Shown here: piece after piece, positions 932 to 30,005 of the stretch
Position numbering within the stretch: position 1 is the first letter of the stretch
Layout: every line of letters begins with the position of its first letter
DNA from: a virus
DNA length: 30,398 bases
IMG/VR virus record: IMGVR_UViG_3300028454_000075
Span: 1-30,398 of that record
Reading direction: 5' to 3' (one strand)
The notes under the pieces: generated by a model
What the model saw: the letters and a program-made list of their open reading frames with translations, nothing else
Databases searched by the model: none
Told to the model about the DNA's origin: nothing
Program-made: the position numbers and the translations under genes

Positions 932-1717
932 ATGGCATATATACAAGACGAATATATTTTCCCTAACTCGATTGAAGTAGAAATCAAATGGGCTGGTAAT
1001 TATGGAGCTAAAGGTGAGAGAAGAGCTCCAAGGGAGAAGGCAACACCACAGCAGATTGAAAAACAAAATCAGTGGAAGAAAGAAAACGAAGTAAGAAGGT
1101 TGCTGAAGCTTAATTTCAACCTTGGAGATTTTTGGATCACTTTAACCTATCCACAAGGAACTAGAAAAGAGATTAGGGAAGTGAAAAAAGATATCGCAAA
1201 ACTGAATAGATTTTTGAGAAGCAAATATAAAAAGCTTGATATTCCATTCAAGTGGATAAGAAGAGTGGAAATTGGTTCACTTGGAGGAATACATGTACAC
1301 ATGATAGTCAATCAGGTAAGAGGCGAGCCGATTGATATGCTCATTCAAGAAAGATGGCATCAGCTGACAGGCGGCAGAGCTCACTACGAAAGATACCAGG
1401 GCGATGAAGAGTCAGCTAGGAAAGTGGGAGATTATTTAGTAAAGCCTCTGACAGAGCAGCAAGAAAAGATACTTGAAGATAGAGGCTGGGATAAATCAGA
1501 ACTGGTTGGATATTCAACCTCTCGTAACCTGATCAGGCCAGAACCGGTCCGAAAGGAATACAAGCGACGAACGATGCAAAGAGTAATTGAAACAGGAGAG
1601 CCGCAAGCTAGAGAAGGTTACTACATCGACAAGAATAGCATTGTATTTGGCGTGAATAAGTTCACTGGCCTAAGCTACCTCTATTACACAGAAGTGAGAG
1701 GAGACACAGAGCCATGA
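932..1717 (+). CDS. HUH-superfamily rolling-circle replication initiator-like protein (Rep)
   Basis: Three ordered motifs are visible: FWITLTY (motif I, uuTLT), GIHVHMIVNQ (motif II, HUH) and VGDYLVKP (motif III, YxxK). The RBS is weak. Confidence 0.6.
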   Translation: MAYIQDEYIFPNSIEVEIKWAGNYGAKGERRAPREKATPQQIEKQNQWKKENEVRRLLKLNFNLGDFWITLTYPQGTRKEIREVKKDIAKLNRFLRSKYKKLDIPFKWIRRVEIGSLGGIHVHMIVNQVRGEPIDMLIQERWHQLTGGRAHYERYQGDEESARKVGDYLVKPLTEQQEKILEDRGWDKSELVGYSTSRNLIRPEPVRKEYKRRTMQRVIETGEPQAREGYYIDKNSIVFGVNKFTGLSYLYYTEVRGDTEP

Positions 1718-2136
1718 TGGAGGCAAATATCTACATTGCATCGAGCATCAAGAGTAACAAGCCAAAAGAGGGATATATAGGCTACGTGCTCCAAGCTGGT
1801 GACACAGATGCAACGAAAACAGACTTCAAGAAGATTGAAGCCACAAGCAATCAATCCTTAGTAATTTGTTTGAAAGAGGCTTTAGCCCCGATAAAGTCTT
1901 CGTGCAGCAGGATAATAATTCACACGGATTCAACATACGTGAATTTAATGCTTGCTAAATCGTGGAAAAATCAAGGAGAAAAGCTTCTGAAAACTGCCAA
2001 AGGAAAAGATATCCAGTTTGCAGCAGAGTGGAAAGAGATATACGAGAAGCTGCAAGGCAAGGATGTAACTGTTATATGCAACCAACCTAACAAGTTTAAG
2101 AGCTGGTTGCAGCAGGAGGTAGAGAGAAGGGGTTAA
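1714..2136 (+). CDS. RNase H-like fold protein, possibly with a degenerate active site
   Basis: The start overlaps the upstream stop (ATGA). SNQSLVICLKEAL and IIIHTDSTYV resemble the RNase HI helix and DSxY motifs. The first Asp (IYIASS) and the Glu position appear substituted. Confidence 0.4.
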   Translation: MMEANIYIASSIKSNKPKEGYIGYVLQAGDTDATKTDFKKIEATSNQSLVICLKEALAPIKSSCSRIIIHTDSTYVNLMLAKSWKNQGEKLLKTAKGKDIQFAAEWKEIYEKLQGKDVTVICNQPNKFKSWLQQEVERRG

Positions 2137-2870: not shown

Positions 2871-4850
2871 ATGAAAAAGAAAGCGATTAAGGAGATACCG
2901 TTTAAGAGACCCAAGAGATTAAAGAACGGGCTCCAAGCAGAGGCTCAGTCAATCATCATTGATGGAGTATCGCATCTGTTTTTGGACCAGTGGGAAGACA
3001 AGAAACCAAGTTGGCGTTATATCCTCACCAAAAAAGAGCATGGTCGTTACTGGGTAGCAAGCGATGAATGGGACGGAGCAAAGCTCAACGGACAGTTCGC
3101 TTGGTTCTACGACTTCGGAATGGCAAAGGATGTTGACGAGATTGCAGCAGAATGGGCCAAAGAAAACGGATATTACGAAAAAGACTTCAAAGAATTGGCT
3201 AGAGAGGTTGAGACAGAGCAGCTCAGAACGGCGCAGGTCAACAATGAACTCAGACGAAGATTTAAATTGCAACAGCGTGCAGCTGATCTACAAGAGCTTC
3301 CTGAAGACTGGGAAGAATATATCAACAATGTGCTCTCGGACCATAAGCTCTATTATCACCGACATGGCAGATTCACTACTTACTGGTGTTCACATTGCGG
3401 TACAGAGTACACAGTGGCCAACAAGCAACTAGAGACTTACGAAGGACAGTTTGAGTACTACGAGCCAGCTCCTAGCGACGGAGAAGAAAGAGAGTGCCTT
3501 CACTGCAAACAGACAGCAGTATGCAAGCCAAGAGGCAGAGAGAAGAACGGCTCAAGCATAACTAAGTATATATACCTGGCACAGACAACCAAAAGCGGAG
3601 GCTTTGTTACTAGATACTTCCAAGCAACAAAGAAATTCATGCCAGGAGCAACAGAGAAAGTTGATTGGATTGAAGCTTCTAGGACATACATCAGAGATGG
3701 AAAGAGCCAAAGAGATTTTCAGAAGTATGATTGCTATCTAGGCGAAAGATTCTGGGATGATTGCAATTTGGCAGGATTGTCCAACATTAGAATGTATCAA
3801 GGCGTTATTCATCCAGCGACATGGGATGCGGTAGCTGATAGCTATCTGAAGTACGTTCCTGTGAGAGACATATTAGACCTGGATTCAAGACTGAACTTTG
3901 CAGAGTTCACGCTTATAGCTCTAAAGTGGCCTCAGCTGGAAATGCTTATGAAGTTAGGCTTTGAATGGGCGGTACAAACCATTTTGCAGAATCAATGGAC
4001 AACACGATTTGATGTCAACGCAAAAAAGCCTTGGGAGTTCTTCAGAATCAAAAAAGACAGAATGGCAGAGCTTGAATGCACGCCAGAAGCTCTTCAGGTT
4101 TTGCAATTAGAAAATAAGCTCAATGCACACTGGAACGACGACGAGCTCCAAGTAATAGGTCAATTCAACGAAGAGGACGTAAAGACAATACTCAAATACA
4201 TGTCAGCTGAGAAGATGATTAATCGAGTTTGTGAGTATTGCGGATTCACCAAAGAGAGCCTTCGAACAGTATTCGAAAGAGAGAAGCCGAGACGAAAGGC
4301 GACGCTTTATGCAGATTATCTTCACATGAAGGATGCAGCAGGCTTTGATATGACCAATTCAGTGTATTTGCACCCTAGAAACCTTGATAGAGCTCACGCA
4401 GAGCTTGTAGAGAGAAGAGAACAGATTGAAAACGAGCAGTTCCTCAAGAAGAAGGAAGAACAGTTCAAGAATATCCCTAAACGCTACAGAAGTGCTAACA
4501 GGCATTTCAAGTACGAAAGCGGAGAACTATTCATAAGACCAGCGAGAACAGCGACAGAGATAATCCTAGAAGGTCGAATTCAGCATCACTGTGTAGGCGG
4601 TGACAATTACCTGGATAAGCACAACAGAGGCAAGACTTACATCTGTTTCTTGAGATTCAAGGAAGACAAGAAGACGCCATACTACACCGTAGAGCTCGAC
4701 TGGGAATACAACGTTTTACAATTCTACGCTGCTCACGATAAACAGCCTCAGAAGGCTGAAATCGAAGCGTGGTTGAATACATACAAAGAGACTATGCTAG
4801 CCAAGTTGCAGCAGGATAGCATGGGCACACAAGAAGCAAAGGTAAGTTAG
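2871..4850 (+). CDS. PcfJ-like domain protein (large, function unknown)
   Basis: The C-terminal segment EIILEGRIQHHCVGGDNYLDKHNRGKTYICFLRFKEDKKTPYYTVEL...LQFYAAHDKQP resembles the PcfJ-like domain. Cys clusters CSHCG...CLHCK occur in the N-terminal half. Confidence 0.55.
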   Translation: MKKKAIKEIPFKRPKRLKNGLQAEAQSIIIDGVSHLFLDQWEDKKPSWRYILTKKEHGRYWVASDEWDGAKLNGQFAWFYDFGMAKDVDEIAAEWAKENGYYEKDFKELAREVETEQLRTAQVNNELRRRFKLQQRAADLQELPEDWEEYINNVLSDHKLYYHRHGRFTTYWCSHCGTEYTVANKQLETYEGQFEYYEPAPSDGEERECLHCKQTAVCKPRGREKNGSSITKYIYLAQTTKSGGFVTRYFQATKKFMPGATEKVDWIEASRTYIRDGKSQRDFQKYDCYLGERFWDDCNLAGLSNIRMYQGVIHPATWDAVADSYLKYVPVRDILDLDSRLNFAEFTLIALKWPQLEMLMKLGFEWAVQTILQNQWTTRFDVNAKKPWEFFRIKKDRMAELECTPEALQVLQLENKLNAHWNDDELQVIGQFNEEDVKTILKYMSAEKMINRVCEYCGFTKESLRTVFEREKPRRKATLYADYLHMKDAAGFDMTNSVYLHPRNLDRAHAELVERREQIENEQFLKKKEEQFKNIPKRYRSANRHFKYESGELFIRPARTATEIILEGRIQHHCVGGDNYLDKHNRGKTYICFLRFKEDKKTPYYTVELDWEYNVLQFYAAHDKQPQKAEIEAWLNTYKETMLAKLQQDSMGTQEAKVS

Positions 4851-9316: not shown

Positions 9317-9402
9317 AGGAGGAGCTATGGAGAAAGCAAGAGAACCAACAAAGTGAAGGTCTATTGCAGCAGGATAATAATAGTTTTATACCACACACAT
9401 GC

Positions 9403-9425
9403 GGCGGAGACCTTTTCACTCCGCC
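9403..9425 (+). promoter_or_regulatory. Stem-loop GGCGGAG-N9-CTCCGCC in the intergenic region upstream of the late activator gene
   Basis: A perfect 7-bp GC-rich stem read directly. No U-tract follows, so it is not a canonical terminator. Confidence 0.35.
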
Positions 9426-9449
9426 GACTTTAAGGGAGAAAGAAGAAAC

Positions 9450-9854
9450 ATGACTAAAGCAGAAGTACATGACAAGTTAACGGCACCAAGAAGGACTAAG
9501 AGAAAGATAGCGGTCACGAAAGCTCAGATGGAGCGTCTAAGAGTCATGATGTTACCAGGGGCGATTCGATATGACAAAGACAGCATCCAAACATCACCAC
9601 AAGACCCCATGCTGGTCTTTGCTGAGAAGATGGATGAATTAACAAGACAGGCGAAAGATTTAGAACTACTCTACATGAACGAGTACAAAGAGGTTGAAGC
9701 AATGGCTGAGACATTGGACGATGCTCATAGAGATGTGCTCAAGCTGAGATACTTGGCAGAGTATAAGCCTGTAGAGATAGCTATAGAACTAAACTATTCG
9801 GAGTCAACGGTTTACAAACTCAAGAGGGAAGCAATTAAACTTTTGGAAGGATGA
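9450..9854 (+). CDS. RinA/ArpU-like late gene transcriptional activator (sigma-70 region 4-type HTH)
   Basis: ATG 9450 (MTKAEVHD) follows GGGAGAAAGAAG. The C-terminal DVLKLRYLAEYKPVEIAIELNYSESTVYKLKREAIKLL is a sigma r4 / RinA-type HTH. The gene sits immediately upstream of the packaging module. Confidence 0.65.
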   Translation: MTKAEVHDKLTAPRRTKRKIAVTKAQMERLRVMMLPGAIRYDKDSIQTSPQDPMLVFAEKMDELTRQAKDLELLYMNEYKEVEAMAETLDDAHRDVLKLRYLAEYKPVEIAIELNYSESTVYKLKREAIKLLEG

Positions 9855-18487: not shown

Positions 18488-18879
18488 CCCTCGCCAATAT
18501 GCTCATAGTTGACGAAGATGCTCTAATCTGCGACTTAGCAGAAACATATAACATCTATGATATTAGGTCGCTATCTCCAGTGCAGGTAGCGACCTTTGCT
18601 ATTGGTTTGAGGGATAATTCAAGAATTAAATTGAAATTAGCAGATACAAAGATTGATCTAGACCGGCTCATGCTGGCATCAATAGTCGATAGATTATCGA
18701 TATTGTTGTGGCGCCAAACCGAACAGGGACGCAAAGGCGAAAATCCTCCAAAATCGTTCGTATTGGCACTCACCGATAAGGAAGAGAAGCCAAAGGAGGA
18801 ATTAAAAGCTTTTGCAACTATTGAAGAGTTTGACAAAGCGTTAGCCGAATTTGATTCAGCACAAAGAAAGGAGGACTAA
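18152..18879 (+). CDS. Tail assembly chaperone frameshift fusion (G-T-like), -1 shift at 18475..18481
   Basis: The downstream ORF (track 18499..18879) is in the -1 frame relative to 18152..18487 and has no RBS of its own. This is the conserved arrangement in long-tailed phages. Confidence 0.55.
18475..18481 (+). promoter_or_regulatory. Programmed -1 ribosomal frameshift slippery site A AAA AAC
   Basis: An X XXY YYZ heptamer in the correct phase of the 18152 ORF, 4 nt before its TAG. The -1 frame is open from 18469 and is the frame of the 18499..18879 ORF. Confidence 0.65.
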
Positions 18880-18880
18880 C

Positions 18881-20761
18881 ATGGCTTCAGAAATCGCTAA
18901 GGCGTATGTCCAGTTAGTTCCATCTGCAAAAGGTTTTGGTAGTGGAATCAAATCTGCAATCGGTGGCGATGTATCAACAGCGGGAACTGACGCAGGAGCA
19001 AGTTTCGGCGGTAGCATGATTTCTAAGCTTAAAGGTGTGCTCGTTGCAGCAGGAATCGGAACGATTGTCAAAGAGACTATCGAAGCTGGTGCAAATCTGC
19101 AACAGTCGTTTGGCGGCTTAGATACGCTATACGAAGATGCAAGCGAAGCTGCTAAGCAATACGCAAGAGAAGCTGCTTCGGCAGGAATCTCAATGAATGA
19201 TTATGCTGAACAGGCAGTATCATTCGGAGCAGCATTGAAATCAGCTTTTGGAGGAGATACGCAAGCGGCAGCAGAAGCCGCAAACCAAGCTATCTTAGAT
19301 ATGGCTGATAACTCAGCAAAAATGGGAACGTCAATTGATTCAATTCAAAACGCATACCAGGGATTTGCTAAAGGCAACTTCACGATGCTTGATAATCTTA
19401 AGCTTGGCTACGGCGGCACAAAAACTGAGATGGAGCGATTACTGAAAGATGCAGAAAAGCTCCATGAGGAAGCCACTGGCGAAGTCACACATTATGATAT
19501 CAACAACCTTGGAGATGTCTATAGTGCAATCCATGATGTTCAGACTGAATTAGGTTTGACGGGAGTTGCAGCAGACGAGGCTAAGACAACATTCACCGGT
19601 TCAATGCAAGCAATGAAAGCCACAGTCACTAATCTGATGGCAGATATAACAACAGGAGCTAGTCCAGAGGTTATATTGGAGGATTTGGCAAGCCTGTTCG
19701 AATCAGTCAAGACTTTTGTTTTTGATAACTTAGGCTCAATGGTTATGGATATCATTAATGCCTTGCCAACACTGCTTAGCGGAATAGCTGATTTTTTATC
19801 AACGGAAATCCCGACAATGACCGAAGAGCTATTAACGCAAATCGGTTCGCTGGCGGAAAAGATTCCTGAGATTATCGCAGAGCTTCTACCTAAGTTGCTA
19901 TCTGTTTTTGATGGACTAAGAGGAAGCACTAACACGTTGATTGATATCGGATTAGAGATGATCCTAAATTTGGTACAAGGATTAATGCAAGCCCTTCCTT
20001 CGTTAATCGAAGCAATTCCTCAGATAATTATGGGATTAGTGCAGACGTTTGTTGAAAACTTCCCTAAGATTATCGAGACGGGCATTCAATTGACATCAAG
20101 TATACAAATCGGGCTCCTCAATGCTCTTCCATCCTTGCTAGAAGGAATGGGACAGATTCTTGTAATGCTGGTCGATTTGATTATTCATACAGACTGGATT
20201 GGCATAGGCAAGGATATAATCGTTGCACTTGCAAACGGAGTAAAAGCATTACAGGAAAATATTCCAAAAGTGCTTAAAAGCATCATGAATACAGCGATAA
20301 CTACAATCAAGAATATTAACTGGAAAGCTGTAGGACATGCAATCATTAACGGTATTGTTAACGGATTGAAGGCTTTAGGACACCTTATCAAAGACTATTT
20401 ATTGGAGCTTGCATCATCAGCTTTGGATTCAATCAAAGAGTTCTTCGGTATCAAATCACCATCGAGAGTCATGCGAGACCAAGTTGGTAAGATGATTCCT
20501 GCTGGTATGGCAATTGGTATCAAGATGAATTCAGACGATGCAATCGAAGCGGCCAAAGATATGTCGGCAGAAGTTCTTGAAGAGGCGAAGGTAGACATTG
20601 ACGATTTTGGACCTGTAAAGGACGAGCCAACACCAGCACCTACAACAAACTTCACACAGAACCTATATGTAACAACAACAGACAATAGCCCAGATGAGAT
20701 TGCCAGAAAGTCAAGGCAAGAATCTCGCTGGGGACTCATGACGGGAGGCGAACTTGGATAA
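18881..20761 (+). CDS. Tape measure protein
   Basis: ATG 18881 follows AAGGAGG. It is the largest tail-module gene (626 aa), Ala/Gly/Ile/Leu-rich and helical, and sits after the chaperone pair. Confidence 0.8.
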   Translation: MASEIAKAYVQLVPSAKGFGSGIKSAIGGDVSTAGTDAGASFGGSMISKLKGVLVAAGIGTIVKETIEAGANLQQSFGGLDTLYEDASEAAKQYAREAASAGISMNDYAEQAVSFGAALKSAFGGDTQAAAEAANQAILDMADNSAKMGTSIDSIQNAYQGFAKGNFTMLDNLKLGYGGTKTEMERLLKDAEKLHEEATGEVTHYDINNLGDVYSAIHDVQTELGLTGVAADEAKTTFTGSMQAMKATVTNLMADITTGASPEVILEDLASLFESVKTFVFDNLGSMVMDIINALPTLLSGIADFLSTEIPTMTEELLTQIGSLAEKIPEIIAELLPKLLSVFDGLRGSTNTLIDIGLEMILNLVQGLMQALPSLIEAIPQIIMGLVQTFVENFPKIIETGIQLTSSIQIGLLNALPSLLEGMGQILVMLVDLIIHTDWIGIGKDIIVALANGVKALQENIPKVLKSIMNTAITTIKNINWKAVGHAIINGIVNGLKALGHLIKDYLLELASSALDSIKEFFGIKSPSRVMRDQVGKMIPAGMAIGIKMNSDDAIEAAKDMSAEVLEEAKVDIDDFGPVKDEPTPAPTTNFTQNLYVTTTDNSPDEIARKSRQESRWGLMTGGELG

Positions 20762-22735: not shown

Positions 22736-23647
22736 ATGATAGCATATCCGCTTGATTCACATGTCAATTTCAATTCCGATGGAATACCAGAGTTTGACAG
22801 AGCAATAACCTCAGCTCCATTCCGCAAGCTAATCAGACAGTTGGTAAGAGAGGGCATAGACCCTACGGTTTCAACTTCATTGCAAGTATATGCGACAGGA
22901 GACATGACTGTTACAGTCAATCCTGGATTCGGAGTTGTAGATGGCCTGTTAGCTTTGGAAGAGGAACTAAGAACTTTAGTAGTTACAGCGTCAGATGGAA
23001 CATACGACAGAATTGACACTGTCGTGCTCAGACTGAACGATAACGACAATGTACGTCTTTGTGATTTGTATATTGTGAAGGGCGTACCAGCATCAAACCC
23101 TGTTCATCCTGATCTAACAAGAGAAGGCTCAATATATGAGCTTGGTCTTGCAGACATCTTCGTCGGAGCCCATGCGACAAGAATAACAACCGACAAGATA
23201 ACTGATACAAGGTACGACACAGAACGATGCGGAGTAATCTCTCCAATCGCTGAGTTCGACACAGAGACACTCAACCAGCAGATGACTGCTTGGGCACAGG
23301 CTCAGCAGGAAGAATTTGGAGAGTGGGAAGTTGCACAGAAAGCATCATTCGAAGCATGGGTTCAGACCATTCAGAATATATTAGACGAATCTGCAGCAGG
23401 ACACCTTCAGCTTGAAATCGAAAGAGTTGATAAGGCTCGAATGGGTCTTGAGGAAACTCACATCGAATTCAATAATGATGGATCCATAACCGAAACCAAA
23501 GGCGACGGAAGAACACTCGAAACTACATTCAACGCCGATGGAACAATCACCCAGGTTCTAGAAGATGCACTGGGCGGAGAATTGTGGAGACAGACAACTA
23601 CATTCAACGCTGATGGTTCTATTGACGTAGTAAAGGAGGTCGAATAA
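22736..23647 (+). CDS. Tail fibre / baseplate structural protein
   Basis: RBS AAGGAGG. It sits in the tail-tip module. The C-terminus has three F-N-(N/A)-D-G-(S/T)-I repeats. Confidence 0.45.
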   Translation: MIAYPLDSHVNFNSDGIPEFDRAITSAPFRKLIRQLVREGIDPTVSTSLQVYATGDMTVTVNPGFGVVDGLLALEEELRTLVVTASDGTYDRIDTVVLRLNDNDNVRLCDLYIVKGVPASNPVHPDLTREGSIYELGLADIFVGAHATRITTDKITDTRYDTERCGVISPIAEFDTETLNQQMTAWAQAQQEEFGEWEVAQKASFEAWVQTIQNILDESAAGHLQLEIERVDKARMGLEETHIEFNNDGSITETKGDGRTLETTFNADGTITQVLEDALGGELWRQTTTFNADGSIDVVKEVE

Positions 23648-25077
23648 TGAGTTTTGCAGATATTGTATGGGCTACAACAGGACAGCTGATGAAGCTCAGA
23701 GTTAAAACCGACGCAGCTCTTATCGGTCAGACAATCAGCGCTACCGATGGAGCAAAGACGGTCACAGCTACAGTGGGAAATGACAAGGTGGCAACCTTGA
23801 TACTTCCTCATGGTGGCGAGTGGACTATTACAGAAGGCTTGAGAAGCCATTCTAAGGTTGTTAACCTTCAGACGTATGGCTGGCATGAAATTACCTTAAG
23901 AAGCTATATTCTATATGGATATAGAAAGACTAAGGGCGACAAGAGAACAGCGGTCAGAATTGAGTATCCTTCTGACGTTGATAATGCTGATTTTGAACCA
24001 GCATATATGGACTTCACGGCCGACAAGTTCAATTATGGTTCATGGAAAAATGCGTTCTTCATGCCTCGTCCATGTATGGTAAAGGCTAACGGAACAGTTG
24101 ACTACTACCTGGATGAGAACGACTTCACTAAGAAAGCAGATGGAAGCGGCGCCTCTGATGTAACAAACACATCATACAATGGCAACGCTATGATTCAGTT
24201 TCCAACCATCTACTTTAAGAGATGGGAGGATTCAACCTATGAATATTGTTATCTGTCAGATGCAGCAGTAGATTCGAACTACAAAGCGTATGCTCACACA
24301 GATAAAAACGGCGACATCATTCCATATTGCTACATGGCAGCATATAGAGGTTCAAGCATCAGCTCTAAGATGCGCTCACTTAGCGGTCAGACATGCATGG
24401 CATCACAGACAGCTGCAGGCGAGAGAACTCTTGCGCAAGCAAACGGTGGCGAATGGGATATGTCAGTACTTGCAGATAGAATGATGGTCAACGATTTGCT
24501 CGTGCTCATCAGCAAGTCAACAAACACACAGAAATCATTCGGATACGGCAACGCTCCTGGCTCTCAGTCAGTTGTCAGCACAGGCCAGCTTGACAAATAC
24601 GGAATGTTCTACGGAACATCTGGCACATCCGGACTTGGGGTTAAGGTGTTCGGAATTGAACACTACTGGGGCAATCAGTGGAACAGACTCCTTGGATGGC
24701 TTAACGTAAGCGGTACACAGAAGATTAAGCTCACAAAGGGCACAGCTGATGGCTCTACAGCTACAGATTATGATTTTGTAGGAACAGGATATATCGCAAT
24801 CGCAAATGCTACACCAGCAGGAACATCGGGCGGATATATCTCAGCAACTAAGATGACTGAATATGGATGCCTCCCTGTTACCGCATCAGGTTCTGACAGC
24901 ACATTTGAATGCGATGGCATGTGGTTCAATAACGGACAGACAGACGTTGCGTTTGTCGGTGGCCACTCGGACCATTCCGCTTTTTGCGGTGCGTTTGCTG
25001 CGGGTCTGGCCGTTGCTGCTTCTAGTGCGTACTGGAACATCGCCTCGTCCTTGTCTTTGAAGCCACTTGCTTCTTAA
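23647..25077 (+). CDS. Tail fibre / receptor-binding protein, the DGR variable (target) protein
   Basis: The last structural gene. Its 3' terminal 113 bp form the VR of the DGR. The variable codons fall in ...VAFVGGHSDHSAFCGAFAAGLAVAASSAYWNIASSLS. Confidence 0.8.
   Translation: MSFADIVWATTGQLMKLRVKTDAALIGQTISATDGAKTVTATVGNDKVATLILPHGGEWTITEGLRSHSKVVNLQTYGWHEITLRSYILYGYRKTKGDKRTAVRIEYPSDVDNADFEPAYMDFTADKFNYGSWKNAFFMPRPCMVKANGTVDYYLDENDFTKKADGSGASDVTNTSYNGNAMIQFPTIYFKRWEDSTYEYCYLSDAAVDSNYKAYAHTDKNGDIIPYCYMAAYRGSSISSKMRSLSGQTCMASQTAAGERTLAQANGGEWDMSVLADRMMVNDLLVLISKSTNTQKSFGYGNAPGSQSVVSTGQLDKYGMFYGTSGTSGLGVKVFGIEHYWGNQWNRLLGWLNVSGTQKIKLTKGTADGSTATDYDFVGTGYIAIANATPAGTSGGYISATKMTEYGCLPVTASGSDSTFECDGMWFNNGQTDVAFVGGHSDHSAFCGAFAAGLAVAASSAYWNIASSLSLKPLAS
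24945..25057 (+). repeat. DGR variable repeat (VR)
   Basis: A 113-bp match to 25167..25279 with 15 mismatches. Each mismatch lies opposite an adenine in the other copy, and there are no others. Confidence 0.9.
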
Positions 25078-25107
25078 GGAAAGGTGAATTGCGAAGAATG
25101 AGCAAGA

Positions 25108-25129
25108 GGGAAACTTCTAGTTTCCCTTT
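25108..25129 (+). terminator. Hairpin downstream of the VR / tail-fibre gene (terminator and possible DGR target-recognition hairpin)
   Basis: GGGAAACT-TCT-AGTTTCCC is a perfect 8-bp stem followed by TTTA, 51 nt past the VR end. Confidence 0.55.
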
Positions 25130-25166
25130 ATGCTCTTTAATTAAATATACGGATTAAGAGGTCGCT

Positions 25167-25279
25167 CGTTGCGTATGTCGGTGGCAACTCGAACAATTCC
25201 GCTATTTGCGGTGCGTTTGCTGCGAATCTGAACAATGCTGCTTCTAATGCGAACTGGAACATCGCCTCGTCCAAGTCTT
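25167..25279 (+). repeat. DGR template repeat (TR)
   Basis: A non-coding copy of the VR. It contains 23 adenines, 15 of which are substituted in the VR. In the VR reading frame the TR reads VAYVGGNSNNSAICGAFAANLNNAASNANWNIASSKS, rich in AAY codons. Confidence 0.9.
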
Positions 25280-25419
25280 ATCCAATAAGACAAAATGACT
25301 TCTTTTTTCGTTGCCCCTTGGCAAAAATAATACTCGACAGCAAGGTGCGGTTAGTAAGCATTAGCAGAAAATCGCATAGAGGATAAGACAGAATTAAGAC
25401 ATCAAGGAAGAGACAACAA

Positions 25420-26475
25420 ATGAAAACATATAAGCATCTATGGGAGGAACTAATATCCGACCAGAACATTGAGACAGCAATCCATAGAGCAAGCCTTGGC
25501 AACAAGGACAAAAGAATGAAAGAAAAACTCAGAAGGATGGAGAGAAAGAAGGAATACTATATTCCATTCTTCAGAGAATATGCAAAGAACTATCACAATG
25601 ATCCACATGTGCCGGTTCAAATCTACGATGGCATTTCGAGAAAGCAAAGAACAATTATAGTTCCAACACCGAAGGAGCAAGTAATACATCACATGGTAGT
25701 ACAGACGATTAAGCCTGTATTCATGAAATCGATGTATAAACACAGCTATGGCTCGATACCAGGGCGAGGATGTCACCTTGCGAAGAGACAGCTGGAAAAA
25801 TGGCTCCCAAGCAAATATGTACTCAAGATTGATATACATCATTACTTCGAGAGCATAGATCAGGATGTTTTGATATCTAAGCTTAAAAGAATTATCAAAG
25901 ACGAAAGAATGATGGAACTATTAGAGAAAATAATACGAGTGTTGCCTCATGGCATCCCACTTGGATTCTATACCTCACAATGGTTCGCTAATTTCTATCT
26001 AACAAGTTTAGACCATTACATCACATCGGAACTAGGCTTCGGAAAGATGATTCGATACATGGACGATATGACCATATTATCGAATAGTAAAAAGAAGCTG
26101 AGACAATTGAAAAAGAAGATTGAAGAGTACTTGAAGACACTAGGCTTAAGACTAAAAGCAAACTGGCAGATATTCAGATTTGACTATATTACCAGAGGAA
26201 AGCGTAGAGGAAGATTTATTGATTTTATGGGATTTAGGTTCTATAGAGATAAAACGACCTTAAGACGTTCGATTATGCTGAAAGCAACAAGGAAGGCTAA
26301 TCGTATAAGCAAGAAGACAAAAGCAACTTGGTACGATGCAGCACAAATGTTGTCGTACACGGGCTACTTTAGGAGCACAAATACGAGAGGCGTTTTTGAA
26401 AAGTATATCAAGCCAAAAGTGAACATCAAGAGCTTGAAAAGAAAGGTATCAAGGCGCTCGAAATGTATGACTTAA
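25420..26475 (+). CDS. DGR reverse transcriptase
   Basis: The YMDD catalytic box (IRYMDDMTIL), the DGR-type GxxxSQ motif (IPLGFYTSQWFANFYL), a size of 351 aa, and the TR 140 nt upstream. Confidence 0.9.
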   Translation: MKTYKHLWEELISDQNIETAIHRASLGNKDKRMKEKLRRMERKKEYYIPFFREYAKNYHNDPHVPVQIYDGISRKQRTIIVPTPKEQVIHHMVVQTIKPVFMKSMYKHSYGSIPGRGCHLAKRQLEKWLPSKYVLKIDIHHYFESIDQDVLISKLKRIIKDERMMELLEKIIRVLPHGIPLGFYTSQWFANFYLTSLDHYITSELGFGKMIRYMDDMTILSNSKKKLRQLKKKIEEYLKTLGLRLKANWQIFRFDYITRGKRRGRFIDFMGFRFYRDKTTLRRSIMLKATRKANRISKKTKATWYDAAQMLSYTGYFRSTNTRGVFEKYIKPKVNIKSLKRKVSRRSKCMT

Positions 26476-26630
26476 TATTACTAGAACAGATGAAAACCAT
26501 CGAACAGCTCACAGTTCTGTGTAAGGAGCTAACTGAGGAGCTGGCGCAGTTCAAAAGTATTGAAGCCGAAGAAAAGCGGCTCGCTAATATAACAAAGGAG
26601 GATAATGCACATGAGAACATTAATAGCTAA
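26463..26630 (+). CDS. Possible small helical protein (55 aa), not in the ORF track
   Basis: The product is MYDLILLEQMKTIEQLTVLCKELTEELAQFKSIEAEEKRLANITKEDNAHENINS. It overlaps the RT stop and the holin start, and its RBS is weak. Confidence 0.3.
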   Translation: MYDLILLEQMKTIEQLTVLCKELTEELAQFKSIEAEEKRLANITKEDNAHENINS

Positions 26631-27102
26631 TCTCAAGCTGTGGGTGGCAGCGCTAAACACACCTAAGGTTAATCTATGCGCCGCAGCTGGCGCACTTGGC
26701 AGTATCATCACATACCTATTCGGAGGATGGACAGAGGGCATGCAGACATTAATGGTTTTGATGGTAATTGATTATTTGACAGGATGGATTGTTGCCGCAG
26801 TATTCAAGCAGTCGAAGAAGACTGAAAGCGGAGGGCTGTCGAGCAATATCGGTTTCAAAGGATTATGTAAGAAATTCGTCGAATGGATGATTGTGGCAGC
26901 TATGTTTAGACTGGATATTCTATTGGGCATTAAATATCTGAGAGACCTTTGTATAATTGGTTTTGCTCTCAATGAAATCATATCCATAACAGAAAATGTT
27001 GGATTGATGGGAATACCACTCCCTCCGGTAGTTGCCAAAGCAATAGCTATATTAAACGAGAAAGCAGGCGGAGAGGATACAGAAGGAGGAAATACAGAAT
27101 GA
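26611..27102 (+). CDS. Holin (Phage_holin_4_1 / toxin secretion-phage lysis holin family)
   Basis: LMVLMVIDYLTGWIVAAVFKQSKKTESGGLSSNIGFKGLCKK plus several hydrophobic segments. ATG 26611 lies 9 nt after AAGGAGG. An alternative ATG at 26605 gives MHMRT. Confidence 0.8.
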   Translation: MRTLIANLKLWVAALNTPKVNLCAAAGALGSIITYLFGGWTEGMQTLMVLMVIDYLTGWIVAAVFKQSKKTESGGLSSNIGFKGLCKKFVEWMIVAAMFRLDILLGIKYLRDLCIIGFALNEIISITENVGLMGIPLPPVVAKAIAILNEKAGGEDTEGGNTE

Positions 27103-28110: not shown

Positions 28111-28145
28111 TGTGGGATTAGGTGTGGGATTCTAAATTATCCCAC
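28111..28145 (+). repeat. Two direct GTGTGGGATT repeats plus one inverted ATCCCAC copy (candidate integrase arm-type sites, P' arm)
   Basis: TGTGGGATT at 28111 and 28123, again 12 bp apart. The inverted GTGGGAT at 28139..28145 overlaps the integrase 3' end. Confidence 0.45.
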
Positions 28146-29172
28146 GACCTAAAATCTTAGCAGCATCATCAAGAATTTGCTCATCCTGCACATGAGTATA
28201 GATGTCAGCTGTAATTGATATAGAAGAGTGCCCCATGAGCTTCTGAGCCACCCTGATGTCGATTCCTCGTCTTGCTAGGTCGGAACAATAAGTATGTCTC
28301 AATTCATAAGGCACGAAGCTCTCTCTGAGAGGAAATGGAGCTACAAGAGCATTGCGGTAGGTTCTACAACCCATTGCAATGTTCATTTGCCTCTTCAGGT
28401 CACTAGCACATCTATTGTAGGAAGATTCACTGTGGAACCTTCCACTGCTATTAGGAGCTAGTGGCTCGAATGGCCCTACGTTCTTAACCTTCTGATAAAA
28501 TTCTTCAGGCATTGGAACAACTCTATCTGAGTTCTTGGTCTTAGTTCCACGGATGTGCAGCAGAGCAACTCCATCCTTGATGCTCAAATCACTTCCTTGG
28601 CACTTGATTGCTTCTCCAGGGCGACAGCCACAGTAGAGCATAAGTTCAAATACTCGATATTTATCCACGTTATCAACAACAGAATGAAAGATTGCTCGCT
28701 CATGCTCTGTTATGGCTTGCCTTTGTCCTTTGATTGCAGCAGGACGAACAACATCCTTTGCAGGGTTCTCTAAGATGATGTGATTCTGTAGAGCTGTTCT
28801 GAAGATAAATTGCAGATCCTGATAAACCTTCTGAACGGTGCTCCAAGAATATCCCTCAAGAGCATTCATTATAGCCTGGCACTGAATAGGCTTAACGGAT
28901 TTAACCGTATAGGAGCCAATCTTGGCCAGAATGTGCTTATTGACTCTTAGGAGCATGTCCTTACGTCCTTCTTCGTTGAGATTCCTCTTATAAGAATCAA
29001 TAGCAATCTCAGCCCAAGTGGACACAAGCATATTACTGGATACAGTCACCTTGCCTTCTTCCAGCGCCTTCTTCTTCTCAAACATCTTCATCAAGACTTC
29101 TTCTTGAGTATGTCCGTATACTTCATATCGCTTCCCATCAAACGAGAAGGATTTTCTAAATTCGTACTTCAT
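28132..29172 (-). CDS. int: Tyrosine recombinase / phage integrase
   Basis: C-terminal catalytic motifs: LRHTYCSDLARRGIDIRVAQKLMGHSSISITADIYTH and GCRPGEAI. An N-terminal SAM-like region is present. Confidence 0.9.
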   Translation of the reverse strand: MKYEFRKSFSFDGKRYEVYGHTQEEVLMKMFEKKKALEEGKVTVSSNMLVSTWAEIAIDSYKRNLNEEGRKDMLLRVNKHILAKIGSYTVKSVKPIQCQAIMNALEGYSWSTVQKVYQDLQFIFRTALQNHIILENPAKDVVRPAAIKGQRQAITEHERAIFHSVVDNVDKYRVFELMLYCGCRPGEAIKCQGSDLSIKDGVALLHIRGTKTKNSDRVVPMPEEFYQKVKNVGPFEPLAPNSSGRFHSESSYNRCASDLKRQMNIAMGCRTYRNALVAPFPLRESFVPYELRHTYCSDLARRGIDIRVAQKLMGHSSISITADIYTHVQDEQILDDAAKILGRGII

Positions 29173-29270: not shown

Positions 29271-29657
29271 TTATTTGGTATCGTCGCCAGACATCCGCTT
29301 GAGAACGCTCAGAATTGCTTCTTTGTCGGGACCAGCTAAAGCAATCCAGTAACGGAGCAGACGATGAAAGCTCCTATCCGCCTGTGGCTCATGGGGACAA
29401 TTCCTATATGCTTCGATTAGAGCCATTTCGTCCCCAGAGAGCAACACCGAGGAAACATCATCTCTACCGAGCAAATAATCAGAGGATACATTGAAGGCAT
29501 CGCATAAGGCTTCAAGATTTTCTTTTGTAGGAAAACGGATGCCACGCTCATATTGTGATATAGTCTGCTTGTTAACATCTAAAATATCCGCCAAGCGCTG
29601 CTGAGAAAAATTTTTTTTCAAGCGCAATTCCTTGATTCTATCCTTAAATTCGGCCAT
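29271..29657 (-). CDS. cI-like repressor (XRE-family HTH)
   Basis: ATG at 29657 lies 7 nt after AGGGGG; the track TTG 29675 is less likely. The HTH is FSQQRLADILDVNKQTISQYERGIRFP. The gene is divergent from the cro-like gene. Confidence 0.8.
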   Translation of the reverse strand: MAEFKDRIKELRLKKNFSQQRLADILDVNKQTISQYERGIRFPTKENLEALCDAFNVSSDYLLGRDDVSSVLLSGDEMALIEAYRNCPHEPQADRSFHRLLRYWIALAGPDKEAILSVLKRMSGDDTK

Positions 29658-29705
29658 TTCGTCACCCCCTTTCAAAAAAAGTAAACAAAAAGTTTATATT
29701 TCCTA

Positions 29706-29734
29706 TTGACAATTATAATCTAGTCGTTTACTAT
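29706..29734 (+). promoter_or_regulatory. Candidate early rightward promoter: TTGACA, 17 nt, TACTAT
   Basis: A consensus -35 at 29706..29711, an exact 17-nt spacer, and a -10 at 29729..29734. The operator lies just downstream. Confidence 0.5.
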
Positions 29735-29740
29735 GAACAA
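29712..29740 (-). promoter_or_regulatory. Candidate repressor-maintenance promoter: TTGTTC, 17 nt, TATAAT on the minus strand
   Basis: A perfect -10 (complement of 29712..29717) with a weak -35 (complement of 29735..29740) abutting the operator. Confidence 0.3.
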
Positions 29741-29757
29741 GTAATCAATTAGATTAC
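29741..29757. promoter_or_regulatory. Operator-like inverted repeat GTAATC-AATTA-GATTAC (copy 1)
   Basis: A 17-bp element in the cI/cro intergenic region, identical to 30002..30018. Confidence 0.55.
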
Positions 29758-29786
29758 ACAATAACAACGAAAGGAGATAAAGACCA

Positions 29787-30005
29787 ATGCCAGCAACATT
29801 ACGCACAACTGAGGAAGTAGGAAAAGCAATCAAAGAAATGCGCGGAACCCGTTCTCAGCAGGAGATAGCTGATGCTCTTGGATGCACAAAGATGGCCATT
29901 TCTCAGTACGAGAACGGTCAGAGAATGCCTAACGATGACATGAAGGTGTCTATAGCGAATTTCTTTGGAGTGACCGTGGGCTCTTTATTTTTTACACAGG
30001 GGTAA
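29787..30005 (+). CDS. Cro-like XRE-family HTH regulator
   Basis: RBS AAGGAGA. The HTH is SQQEIADALGCTKMAISQYENGQRMP. A 72-aa protein, divergent from the repressor gene. Confidence 0.7.
   Translation: MPATLRTTEEVGKAIKEMRGTRSQQEIADALGCTKMAISQYENGQRMPNDDMKVSIANFFGVTVGSLFFTQG

Follow-up and report, generated by a model that had tools for sequence, protein, structure and literature searches.

The DNA described here is the IMG/VR virus record IMGVR_UViG_3300028454_000075, positions 1 to 30,398 (30,398 nucleotides, referred to below as the window). Towards its right-hand end, the last gene of the tail module, a non-coding copy of the 3´ part of that gene and a reverse transcriptase (RT) gene lie next to each other. 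This arrangement is read as a diversity-generating retroelement (DGR), in which a template repeat (TR) would renew, with changes at its adenines, a variable repeat (VR) in the target gene. The core features, all on the + strand, are the following.

23647..25077, +: target gene, 476 aa, last of the tail module; PHROG 5302 'tail protein', E 2e-88
24945..25057, +: VR, 113 nt, codons 434-470 of the 476-aa open reading frame (ORF)
24953..25039, +: mutagenised part of the VR, 21 positions opposite TR adenines, 12 codons
25167..25279, +: TR, non-coding, 113 nt, 23 adenines
25420..26475, +: DGR reverse transcriptase, 351 aa; D138, LGFYTSQ 181-187, RYMDD 212-216; Pfam RVT_1, E 4e-20

The repeat pair and its turnover among related phages

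Base-by-base comparison and a repeat finder delimit the same direct repeat at the same coordinates (offset 222, 87% identity). The VR lies inside the coding part of the target gene, while the TR is housed in the 342-nt gap between target and RT and adjoins the RT gene. In the window, the two copies differ at 15 positions; at each of them the TR has A and the VR another base (C, G or T). The altered positions take in 15 of the 23 TR adenines and no non-adenine; were 15 mismatches scattered by chance, they would all fall on the 23 adenines among 113 positions with a probability of 2.7e-13. Near-identical repeats with differences limited to TR adenines, one of the criteria by which a DGR is recognised, are thus what the window contains. 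These coordinates and counts had been put forward by an earlier inspection of the letters (the sequence-only reading), together with translations of both repeats. Re-alignment and the repeat finder agree with all of this, and the self-alignment that it had proposed as a check brought up no mismatch at a non-adenine TR position in the window. One detail needs correcting, since the VR stops short of the end of the gene: it is followed by six codons and the stop, and the gene ends at 25077.

When the TR is read in the frame of the target gene, all 23 adenines occupy codon positions 1 or 2. The adenine-bearing TR codons are nine AAY, two ATY, one TAT and one AAG, and the mutagenised codons are 436, 440, 442, 443, 446, 453, 455, 456, 460, 462, 464 and 465. 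About 2.5e12 protein variants can be reached without a stop codon from the 21 positions in these 12 codons. A DNA search against deposited phages returned a single match, a 99-nt stretch of the TR in one gut contig.

The behaviour of the two repeats in natural populations was followed in consensus assemblies from independent samples, instead of reads. At 90% identity, the target protein falls into a group of 18 sequences, whose 15 full-length members were compared, and 17 closely related loci were retrieved, yielding 10 distinct VR/TR pairs. Among the 15 proteins, residues 436, 440, 442, 443, 446, 453, 455, 456, 460, 462 and 464 show four to eight alleles each, and residue 465 shows four alleles at lower frequency. 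These variable residues (436-465) coincide exactly with the adenine-bearing TR codons (AAY/ATY/TAT), and the remainder of the target shows mainly two-allele lineage variation. At the DNA level, all 21 adenine columns at 24953-25039 vary among the 10 distinct VRs. The TR is identical across the 10 distinct loci apart from a single A/C polymorphism at 25273, and it is perfectly kept among relatives with flanking genes 4-15% diverged. When each VR is compared with its own TR, 124 of 125 mismatches in the 10 pairs fall on TR adenines (binomial P about 2e-84).

The turnover of the VR is most direct in three pairs of assemblies from different samples.

Window versus L019 (JGI 3300019373), 7,254 nt compared: 0 differences outside the VR; 4 inside, all in TR-adenine columns
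Window versus L025 (SRR7030503), 7,254 nt compared: 0 differences outside the VR; 1 inside, in a TR-adenine column
L001 versus L024 (consecutive ENA accessions), 7,431 nt compared: 0 differences outside the VR; 14 inside, all in TR-adenine columns

A conserved TR and a VR that is hypervariable at adenine-templated sites make up the directional behaviour of a DGR, and this is what the assemblies display. The sequence-only reading had proposed a population check, which, when run on the assemblies, found variation limited to TR-adenine columns and an invariant TR. To judge from these sequences, VR differences between otherwise identical genomes are the signature of ongoing mutagenic retrohoming and not of a fossil element.

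Three points weigh against this reading. Firstly, VR turnover is deduced from consensus assemblies of different samples. Secondly, some near-identical genomes differ at just 1-4 of the 21 sites; this counts against it because full-length retrohoming with about 50% misincorporation per adenine, as in Bordetella phage BPP-1, would alter more. Such few-site differences may reflect the consensus of a mixed population, partial conversion or a lower error rate. Thirdly, one VR/TR difference, a T to G change at column 78 of the L002 VR (window 25023), is the lone one at a non-adenine position, and it adjoins a mutated adenine. Non-canonical VR changes have occasionally been reported in other DGRs (PMC5758913).

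A decayed or inactive remnant, with the TR/VR differences as fossils of past activity, would agree with evidence of activity that comes from sequence comparison, and with the lack of a detected Avd protein. Such a remnant is nonetheless very unlikely to explain contigs from different samples that are identical over 7.2-7.4 kb and yet carry 1-14 VR differences, all in TR-adenine columns. It also fits poorly with an RT ORF that is intact and has all catalytic motifs, and with a TR perfectly conserved amid flanking genes that have diverged by 4-15%.

The reverse transcriptase and the target protein

By sequence, the closest PDB match of the RT is 8ub7_A, a chain identical to Brt (bRT) of BPP-1 as deposited in AY029185 (26% identity, E 2e-28). 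A profile built from 52 family members, Brt left out, matches bRT end to end with 145.7 bits, compared with 97 bits for the best group II intron RT and 42 bits or less for retron and DRT RTs. In an alignment of 54 RTs that includes Brt, residues R77, D138, G182, S186, Q187, R212, Y213, M214, D215 and D216 are invariant. R77 aligns with R74 of bRT, and L181 (I181 in bRT) is conserved in at least 90% of the sequences. It has been described that DGR RTs carry the signature [I/V/L]GxxxSQ, in place of the QGxxxSP of other RTs (PMC7826257). Together with a YxDD motif, this signature is present in the window RT as LGFYTSQ (181-187) and YMDD (213-216).

The nearest phage RTs fall in phage groups reported as DGR carriers, such as crAss-like and Bordetella phages. 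The high-ranking relatives include those of FP_Epona, LBR48 and ANMV-1, which we take to be DGR carriers. In IMG/VR, at least 588 contigs encode an RT of the lineage found in the window. Sequence comparison thus supports placing the enzyme with DGR RTs, with BPP-1 bRT as its closest solved relative, and not with those of group II introns, retrons or Abi/DRT systems. The YMDD and GxxxSQ motifs on which the sequence-only reading had based its 351-aa DGR-type RT were found, and bRT is the best profile match.

The alternative is an RT from another retroelement or defence system (a retron, a group II intron or an Abi/DRT system), next to an ordinary duplication that diverged by mutation, recombination or selection. 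Some observations point that way: the top NCBIfam model is group_II_RT_mat, relatives are labelled 'retron-type RT' in some sources, and the publication on phage Arawn took a related RT as a possible immunity gene. However, the 120 bits of that model are far short of its 300-bit cut-off, and the NCBIfam group II, retron, Abi and DRT models all stay far under their cut-offs on this protein. The motif is LGxxxSQ instead of QGxxxSP, and bRT is the top PDB match by about 49 bits. An Rfam scan of 24800-26700 detected no group II intron, retron or RT-10 RNA, so that intron or msr/msd RNA is absent from the Rfam matches in the region. The adenine-only mismatches, with the chance probability given above in the window and 124 of 125 across the population, would have to be accidental. 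An origin of this kind is therefore exceedingly improbable, and the RT is treated in what follows as a DGR enzyme.

The target gene closes a tail module of siphovirus type that runs from the tape-measure gene (18851-20761) through SPP1_Dit-like and Sipho_Gp37-like genes and a gene for a 303-aa structural protein; holin, endolysin, integrase and repressor genes come after the module. Sequence searches of Pfam, NCBIfam and the PDB with the target returned no match, and its C-type-lectin domain is recognised by fold comparison only. The AlphaFold (AF2) model has a pLDDT of 94 for the full-length protein and 91 for residues 225-476. It predicts three parts: a beta-sandwich at the N-terminus, a domain in the centre and, at the C-terminus, a domain of C-type-lectin fold that bears the VR.

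When the full-length model is compared by Foldseek, the top PDB match is TaqVP, a DGR variable protein of Thermus aquaticus (E 5e-10). This is also the sole significant PDB match of the C-terminal domain (E 1.4e-9, TM 0.62), and is followed in rank by Mtd, formylglycine-generating enzymes (FGE), TvpA and classical C-type lectins. Viral structures matched in BFVD are tail-fibre proteins, including those of crAss-like phages. The model thus supports VR residues carried on a C-type-lectin fold, which, like the Ig-like fold, tolerates variation and is looked for in DGR targets, and the structure prediction that the sequence-only reading had suggested as a check gave the fold that it anticipated. 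The protein is regarded as a putative receptor-binding tail protein, a role assigned from gene position and fold, which is a point to be held against it; tropism switching would be the corresponding function. In the gene before the target, a 21-nt direct repeat (95% identical, 23521-23541 and 23596-23616) at the 3´ end of the 303-aa coding sequence encodes a repeated TTFNADG(T/S)I peptide. This repeat shows no adenine bias and is unrelated to the DGR.

The locus is read, with high confidence, as a functional and active DGR of minimal target-TR-RT architecture without Avd, in a ~30-kb temperate siphovirus of rumen or gut Lachnospiraceae. The sequence-only reading had likewise proposed a DGR, and the DGR traits examined here all speak for it. 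DGRs are common in gut and rumen phages, and the element itself is unsurprising. Its value is that of an unusually clean natural example of a minimal Avd-less DGR in a ~30-kb genome; its activity shows directly when genomes from different samples, alike in all else, are compared. Furthermore, the DGR pattern marks 12 residues of the putative receptor-binding tip of the tail that are being retargeted.

The boundary of mutagenesis and the structured RNA

The 3´ ends of the two repeats resemble the initiation of mutagenic homing (IMH) sequences of other DGRs.

25040..25057, +: IMH-like 3´ end of the VR, GC-rich TCGCCTCGTCC followed by TTGTCTT
25262..25279, +: IMH*-like 3´ end of the TR, TCGCCTCGTCC followed by AAGTCTT

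The sequence-only reading had placed an IMH-type boundary in a 19-bp block, CTGGAACATCGCCTCGTCC, thought to be invariant. This has to be revised: the block is unaltered in the window copy only, and its three adenines (25036, 25037 and 25039, in codons N464 and I465) are substituted in relatives. Mutagenesis ends after 25039, and the zone constant in all relatives starts at 25040. Within that zone, position 25052 (column 107) is T in all VRs and A in all TRs of the 10 pairs. At 25051 (column 106), a TR with A is accompanied by a VR with T (6/6) and a TR with C by a VR with C (4/4). Residue 469 is Leu in 15/15 cluster members, and AAG is the sole adenine-bearing TR codon able to mutate to a stop (TAG).

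IMH and IMH* have been described as an imperfect repeat past the mutagenised region with a GC-rich segment at its start (PMC5758913). As a sequence pattern, a GC-rich segment and an imperfect repeat do follow the last mutagenised adenine here. The 25051-25052 differences, unlike the other 13 mismatches, appear to be fixed and of IMH/IMH* type, in a way that matches the published description.

The constant Leu469 (VR TTG or CTG, TR AAG or CAG) could instead be a structurally essential residue that purifying selection maintains once mutagenesis has occurred, and not a position that is never transferred. Both differing TR positions are adenines, as mutagenesis requires, and the observed VR codons TTG and CTG both encode Leu. 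Against selection, TTG is the VR codon of each of the six lineages with TR AAG, CTG occurring in none of them, and T stands at 25052 in every VR. Moreover, AAG under mutagenesis would give TAG stops, which all the mutagenised codons avoid, and the position comes after the GC-rich block, as with IMH. The Butyrivibrio phages Arawn and Idris likewise have VR TTG against TR TAG just past the GC-rich block. Selection on Leu469 is therefore unlikely, and is the weaker alternative to an IMH/IMH* boundary.

Beyond the TR, the spacer that leads to the RT gene contains a candidate structured RNA and a possible partner for the TR end.

25312..25391, +: structured spacer RNA, Rfam RT-18 motif (RF03021); helices P1 25312-15/25320-23, P2 25333-35/25379-81 and P3 25345-51/25371-77
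25275..25283, +: TR 3´-end box, GTCTTATCC (GUCUUAUCC), with its complement in the spacer-RNA tail
25381..25389, +: 3´ tail of the spacer RNA, GGATAAGAC (GGAUAAGAC), 9-bp complement of the TR-end box

Between 24800 and 26700, Rfam gives sub-threshold matches to RT-18 and RT-17 only. The window copy of RT-18 (36.8 bits, E 6e-5) lies below the gathering score of 41.3, which weighs against the assignment. At the equivalent site, the relatives L006, L004 and L005 score 61.3, 54.1 and 53.4 bits for RT-18. A covariance model built for this analysis from 14 diverse RT-18 copies gives the window copy 67.8 bits. Of 100 loci, 93 contain a single match to this model; each match is on the RT strand, and most end about 10 nt or less from the RT start. 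BPP-1 has no match. In an alignment of 49 distinct sequences, 95.9% of cells are paired, compared with 35-51% when the partners are slid. Compensatory changes occur in 12 of the 14 RT-18 pairs, and 0 of 500 shuffles reach the observed covariation. The alignment was fitted to the model, which biases it toward pairing; sequences inspected by hand show the same compensation.

What these compensatory changes preserve upstream of the RT gene is a three-helix structure, with the same architecture as Rfam RT-18 and its conserved loops (the CUUGG hairpin, UAGUA, GAAA and the AUAAGA tail). The thermodynamic fold of the 140-nt spacer alone is unexceptional (z = 0.06), and the structure is revealed by comparative analysis only. 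Where the TR has been located (the window, L004, L008, L011 and L014), RT-18 begins about 33-43 nt after it. RT-18 was published as an orphan motif near RT genes, with a speculative DGR link only, and the same study linked RT-10 alone to a DGR, that of BPP-1 (Weinberg et al. 2017, PMC5737381).

The spacer-RNA tail is near-invariant, and its complement GTCTTATCC sits exactly where TR/VR homology stops. Across 44 distinct loci, the best helix between TR end and tail averages 7.81, compared with 6.82 +/- 0.13 after exchange of tails between loci (maximum 7.17, 200 permutations) and 5.99 with shuffled tails. Compensatory pairs of TR end and tail are found in L042 (TCTTGTC/GACAAGA), L014 (TGTCTTGAAA/TTTCAAGACA), L039 (TCTTGTAG/CTACAAGA) and L036 (CTTCTTATTCT/GGAATAAGAAG). 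In BPP-1, a TR(117-129):Sp(47-56) duplex sets the priming Sp A56 opposite the initiating TR G117 (bioRxiv 10.1101/2023.10.23.563531). By analogy, the helix between TR end and tail is the likely counterpart of this priming duplex. Given the BPP-1 duplex, this helix would make cDNA synthesis begin at about 25274-25275, within IMH*, which fits the untransferred differences at 25051-52.

A point against this pairing is that it competes with a local hairpin at 25275-25291. The TR end GTCTTAT and ATAAGAC (25285-25291, loop CCA) form a perfect 7-bp stem there, and similar proximal copies occur in L001, L017 and L034. The TR end may therefore alternate between two conformations, the local hairpin and the pairing with the distal RT-18 tail.

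The BPP-1 bRT-Avd-RNA structure leaves cDNA priming and positioning in Avd-less DGRs unexplained, and the accompanying survey of RNA elements took in Avd-containing DGRs only (bioRxiv 10.1101/2023.10.23.563531). Assigning RT-18 and the TR-end pairing to Avd-less DGRs would go beyond existing descriptions, with computational support that is good for the structure. It is tentatively proposed, as a real possibility that falls somewhat short of probable, that this Avd-less lineage has its own self-priming RNA. The AUAAGA tail of the RT-18 spacer would pair with a UCUUAU box at the TR 3´ end, and the ~350-aa RT would start adenine-mutagenic cDNA without a helper. If true, the orphan Rfam motif RT-18 gains a function, and a minimal DGR would consist of two components, an RT and ~350 nt of RNA. 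The model is concrete and testable, and hints that tools for targeted mutagenesis could be built on a compact cassette of two parts.

The proposed cycle would run as follows. The RT (25420-26475) would bind a transcript in which the TR (25167-25279) is followed by the 140-nt spacer. The spacer would fold as the three-helix RT-18 RNA, and its tail GGAUAAGAC (25381-25389) would pair with the TR end GUCUUAUCC (25275-25283), a pairing that would define where cDNA synthesis starts. The RT would then copy the TR faithfully save at adenines, opposite which any nucleotide could be inserted. The resulting cDNA would take the place of the VR, its homologue in the 3´-terminal part of the tail-protein gene, with the 3´ junction within the GC-rich IMH-like block (25040-25050). 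In this way, only the 21 adenine-templated positions in 12 codons would change, giving ~2.5e12 variants of the ligand-binding face of the predicted C-type-lectin domain, free of stops; rapid retargeting of host receptors would be the likely consequence.

Two further structures, with no strand assigned, lie at and after the end of the target gene.

25105..25129: hairpin between VR and TR, AGAGGGAAACT-TCT-AGTTTCCCTTT, 8-bp core 25108-25126
25049..25084: imperfect inverted repeat over the VR end and the stop codon, core GAAGC-CACTT-GCTTC

The 8-bp hairpin that the sequence-only reading had placed at 25108..25126 was recovered and extends to 25105-25129. It has a TCT loop and four GC pairs in its core, and starts 47 nt past the VR end and 28 nt past the stop codon. 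The target hairpin of BPP-1-type DGRs is a GC-rich 7-10 bp stem with a 4-nt GRNA loop, 4-34 bp after the VR (PMC3240598). The window hairpin is not of this type, and is instead a conserved, covarying hairpin of another kind. Homologous covarying hairpins occupy the same place in distant relatives, with a purine-rich (A)GAGGG 5´ arm; most have no T-run and are followed by A-rich sequence.

The hairpin could be part of the element, serving either in the DNA as a target structure or in the DGR RNA as its upstream section. It might also be merely the intrinsic terminator of the tail operon, with no part in target recognition or in the DGR RNA. Its distance from the stop codon, the fit to a terminator-like scan with TTTATGCTCTTT next to it, and the misfit to the BPP-1-type consensus (47 nt from the VR end, TCT loop, four GC pairs) would all suit a terminator. 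Against this stand the covarying hairpins at the same site in distant relatives, mostly without a T-run, and the flanking non-coding blocks kept between phages with target proteins just ~40% identical. A terminator is thus possible, on the less probable side, and a role in the element is preferred.

The DNA fold of 25040-25140 has a z of -4.65, and the inverted repeat at 25049-25084 is weakened in L001. In the VR-TR spacer (25078-25166), the blocks AAGGNGTGAATTG and GCAAGAGGGRAAC are shared with the equivalents in L008, L011 and L014, with targets ~40% identical. Their sequence conservation suggests a further cis element, perhaps a promoter, or else an upstream section of the DGR RNA.

Architecture, genome and comparison with known systems

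Pfam scans of 39 window ORFs detected neither Avd (PF05635) nor HRDC; these comprise 30 of the 31 long + strand ORFs of 1-20,761 (all except the tape-measure ORF 18851-20761) plus nine others. NCBIfam likewise found no Avd or HRDC in the ORFs flanking the DGR. The VR-TR gap (~110 nt) and the TR-RT gap (~140 nt) are too short for a gene, and the cassette thus lacks the Avd or HRDC gene of BPP-1-type elements. Among 372 DGRs surveyed, 29% were 'Architecture A' elements without an accessory gene, for which an Avd-independent mechanism was inferred (Wu et al. 2018, PMC5758913). On its gene content, the window element is an Avd-less 'Architecture A1' DGR (target-TR-RT). Two considerations weigh against helper independence: bRT is inactive without Avd (bioRxiv 10.1101/2023.10.23.563531), and there may be a very divergent or host-encoded helper protein.

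Two candidates for an accessory gene 3´ of the RT were set aside. The 55-aa ORF at 26463-26630, overlapping the RT stop, has no homologue 3´ of the RT in 87 related loci and no family match. In many distant relatives (among L034-L120), a conserved small ORF of 72-117 aa lies directly 3´ of the RT and overlaps its stop, with a pattern of roughly W..S..RP....Y.Y(V/L)R(K/R)(N/D)I.....Y.E..(I/L).(P/K).E(F/W)..Y. Pfam gives no match for this family, which the window lacks; it was not taken as part of the element. In L049, the sole relative in which the following ORF was scanned, an XkdX gene comes next.

The window probably represents a complete temperate phage genome, because independent assemblies of this phage (L019-L022) agree at 29.7-30.6 kb, one of them being exactly 30,398 bp with a different VR. 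An integrase gene lies at 28132-29172 on the - strand, and genes for helix-turn-helix regulators at 29271-30005. As regards the host, a search of genome collections returned two metagenome-assembled genomes (MAGs) only, with 43-44% identity, one being a Lachnospiraceae MAG from roe-deer rumen, and a 77%-identical homologue is found in a Pseudobutyrivibrio MAG. The hosts are likely to be rumen or gut Lachnospiraceae.

Two other genes were noted in passing. At 1714-2136 (+), an RNase H-like protein (Pfam PF00075, E 1e-6) adjoins a Rep-like ORF at 932-1717 (+) (REP_ORF2-G2P); it probably has a replication function, and could process RNA:cDNA hybrids. At 9399-9854 (+), upstream of the packaging and structural genes, a sigma-70 region 4-like protein, also matched by DUF1492, may be a late-gene regulator.

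A close known system is the BPP-1 DGR (mtd-avd-TR-brt). Both elements share adenine-specific transfer from TR to VR, and in both the VR lies at the 3´ end of the gene for a receptor-binding tail protein of C-type-lectin fold (role and fold being predicted in the window). They also share AAY-rich TR codons that avoid stops, and a GC-rich IMH-like end with a few fixed TR/VR differences. The RT of BPP-1 has IGxxxSQ/YMDD and that of the window LGxxxSQ/YMDD, the two being 26% identical.

On the other hand, avd is present in BPP-1 and was detected neither between VR and TR nor elsewhere among the 39 scanned ORFs of the window. The spacer RNA of BPP-1 belongs to the RT-10 motif, while that of the window is of RT-18 type. 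The window hairpin is further from the VR and has no GRNA loop. The window target has no detectable sequence similarity to Mtd and is structurally closer to TaqVP. In addition, the window phage probably has a Gram-positive host and a siphovirus virion. The likeness to BPP-1 Mtd/Brt drawn by the sequence-only reading thus stands for the adenine pattern, the RT family and the predicted C-type-lectin target, and gives way as regards Avd, the spacer RNA and the hairpin. Thermus aquaticus TaqVP (PDB 5VF4), the best structural match of the C-terminal domain, differs in sequence (~11% identity), in its N-terminal domains and in being a cellular protein instead of a phage tail protein.

The 'Architecture A1' of Wu et al. 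2018 (PMC5758913) shares the core TR-RT organisation without an accessory gene; spacer RNA structures were not described in that survey. Among deposited phages, the closest RTs are those of the Butyrivibrio phages Arawn and Idris (Arawnvirus) and the near-identical Closwp03 (45% identity), followed by the Firmicutes gut phages FP_Epona (44%) and LBR48 (36%). Arawn and Idris have genomes of ~31 kb and share with the window the order tail module-target-TR-RT and the lack of Avd. They differ in that targets and RTs are distant (45% identity or less) and in that the Arawn spacer is a weak RT-18 match and resembles RT-4. Their repeats lie at the same coordinates.

Arawn (L030, MN882550): VR 4492-4596, TR 4734-4838
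Idris (L123, MN882554): VR 4492-4596, TR 4734-4838

The TRs of the two phages are identical, and the VRs show 8 (Arawn) and 16 (Idris) A-to-N differences from them. Between Arawn and Idris there are 13 VR differences, all in TR-adenine columns, compared with 1 difference in the 4.5 kb upstream. The publication on these phages does not mention a DGR, and interpreted the RT in terms of possible prophage immunity. With this active DGR, previously unrecognised, the cultured rumen phages Arawn and Idris bring an experimental test of the RNA model within reach.

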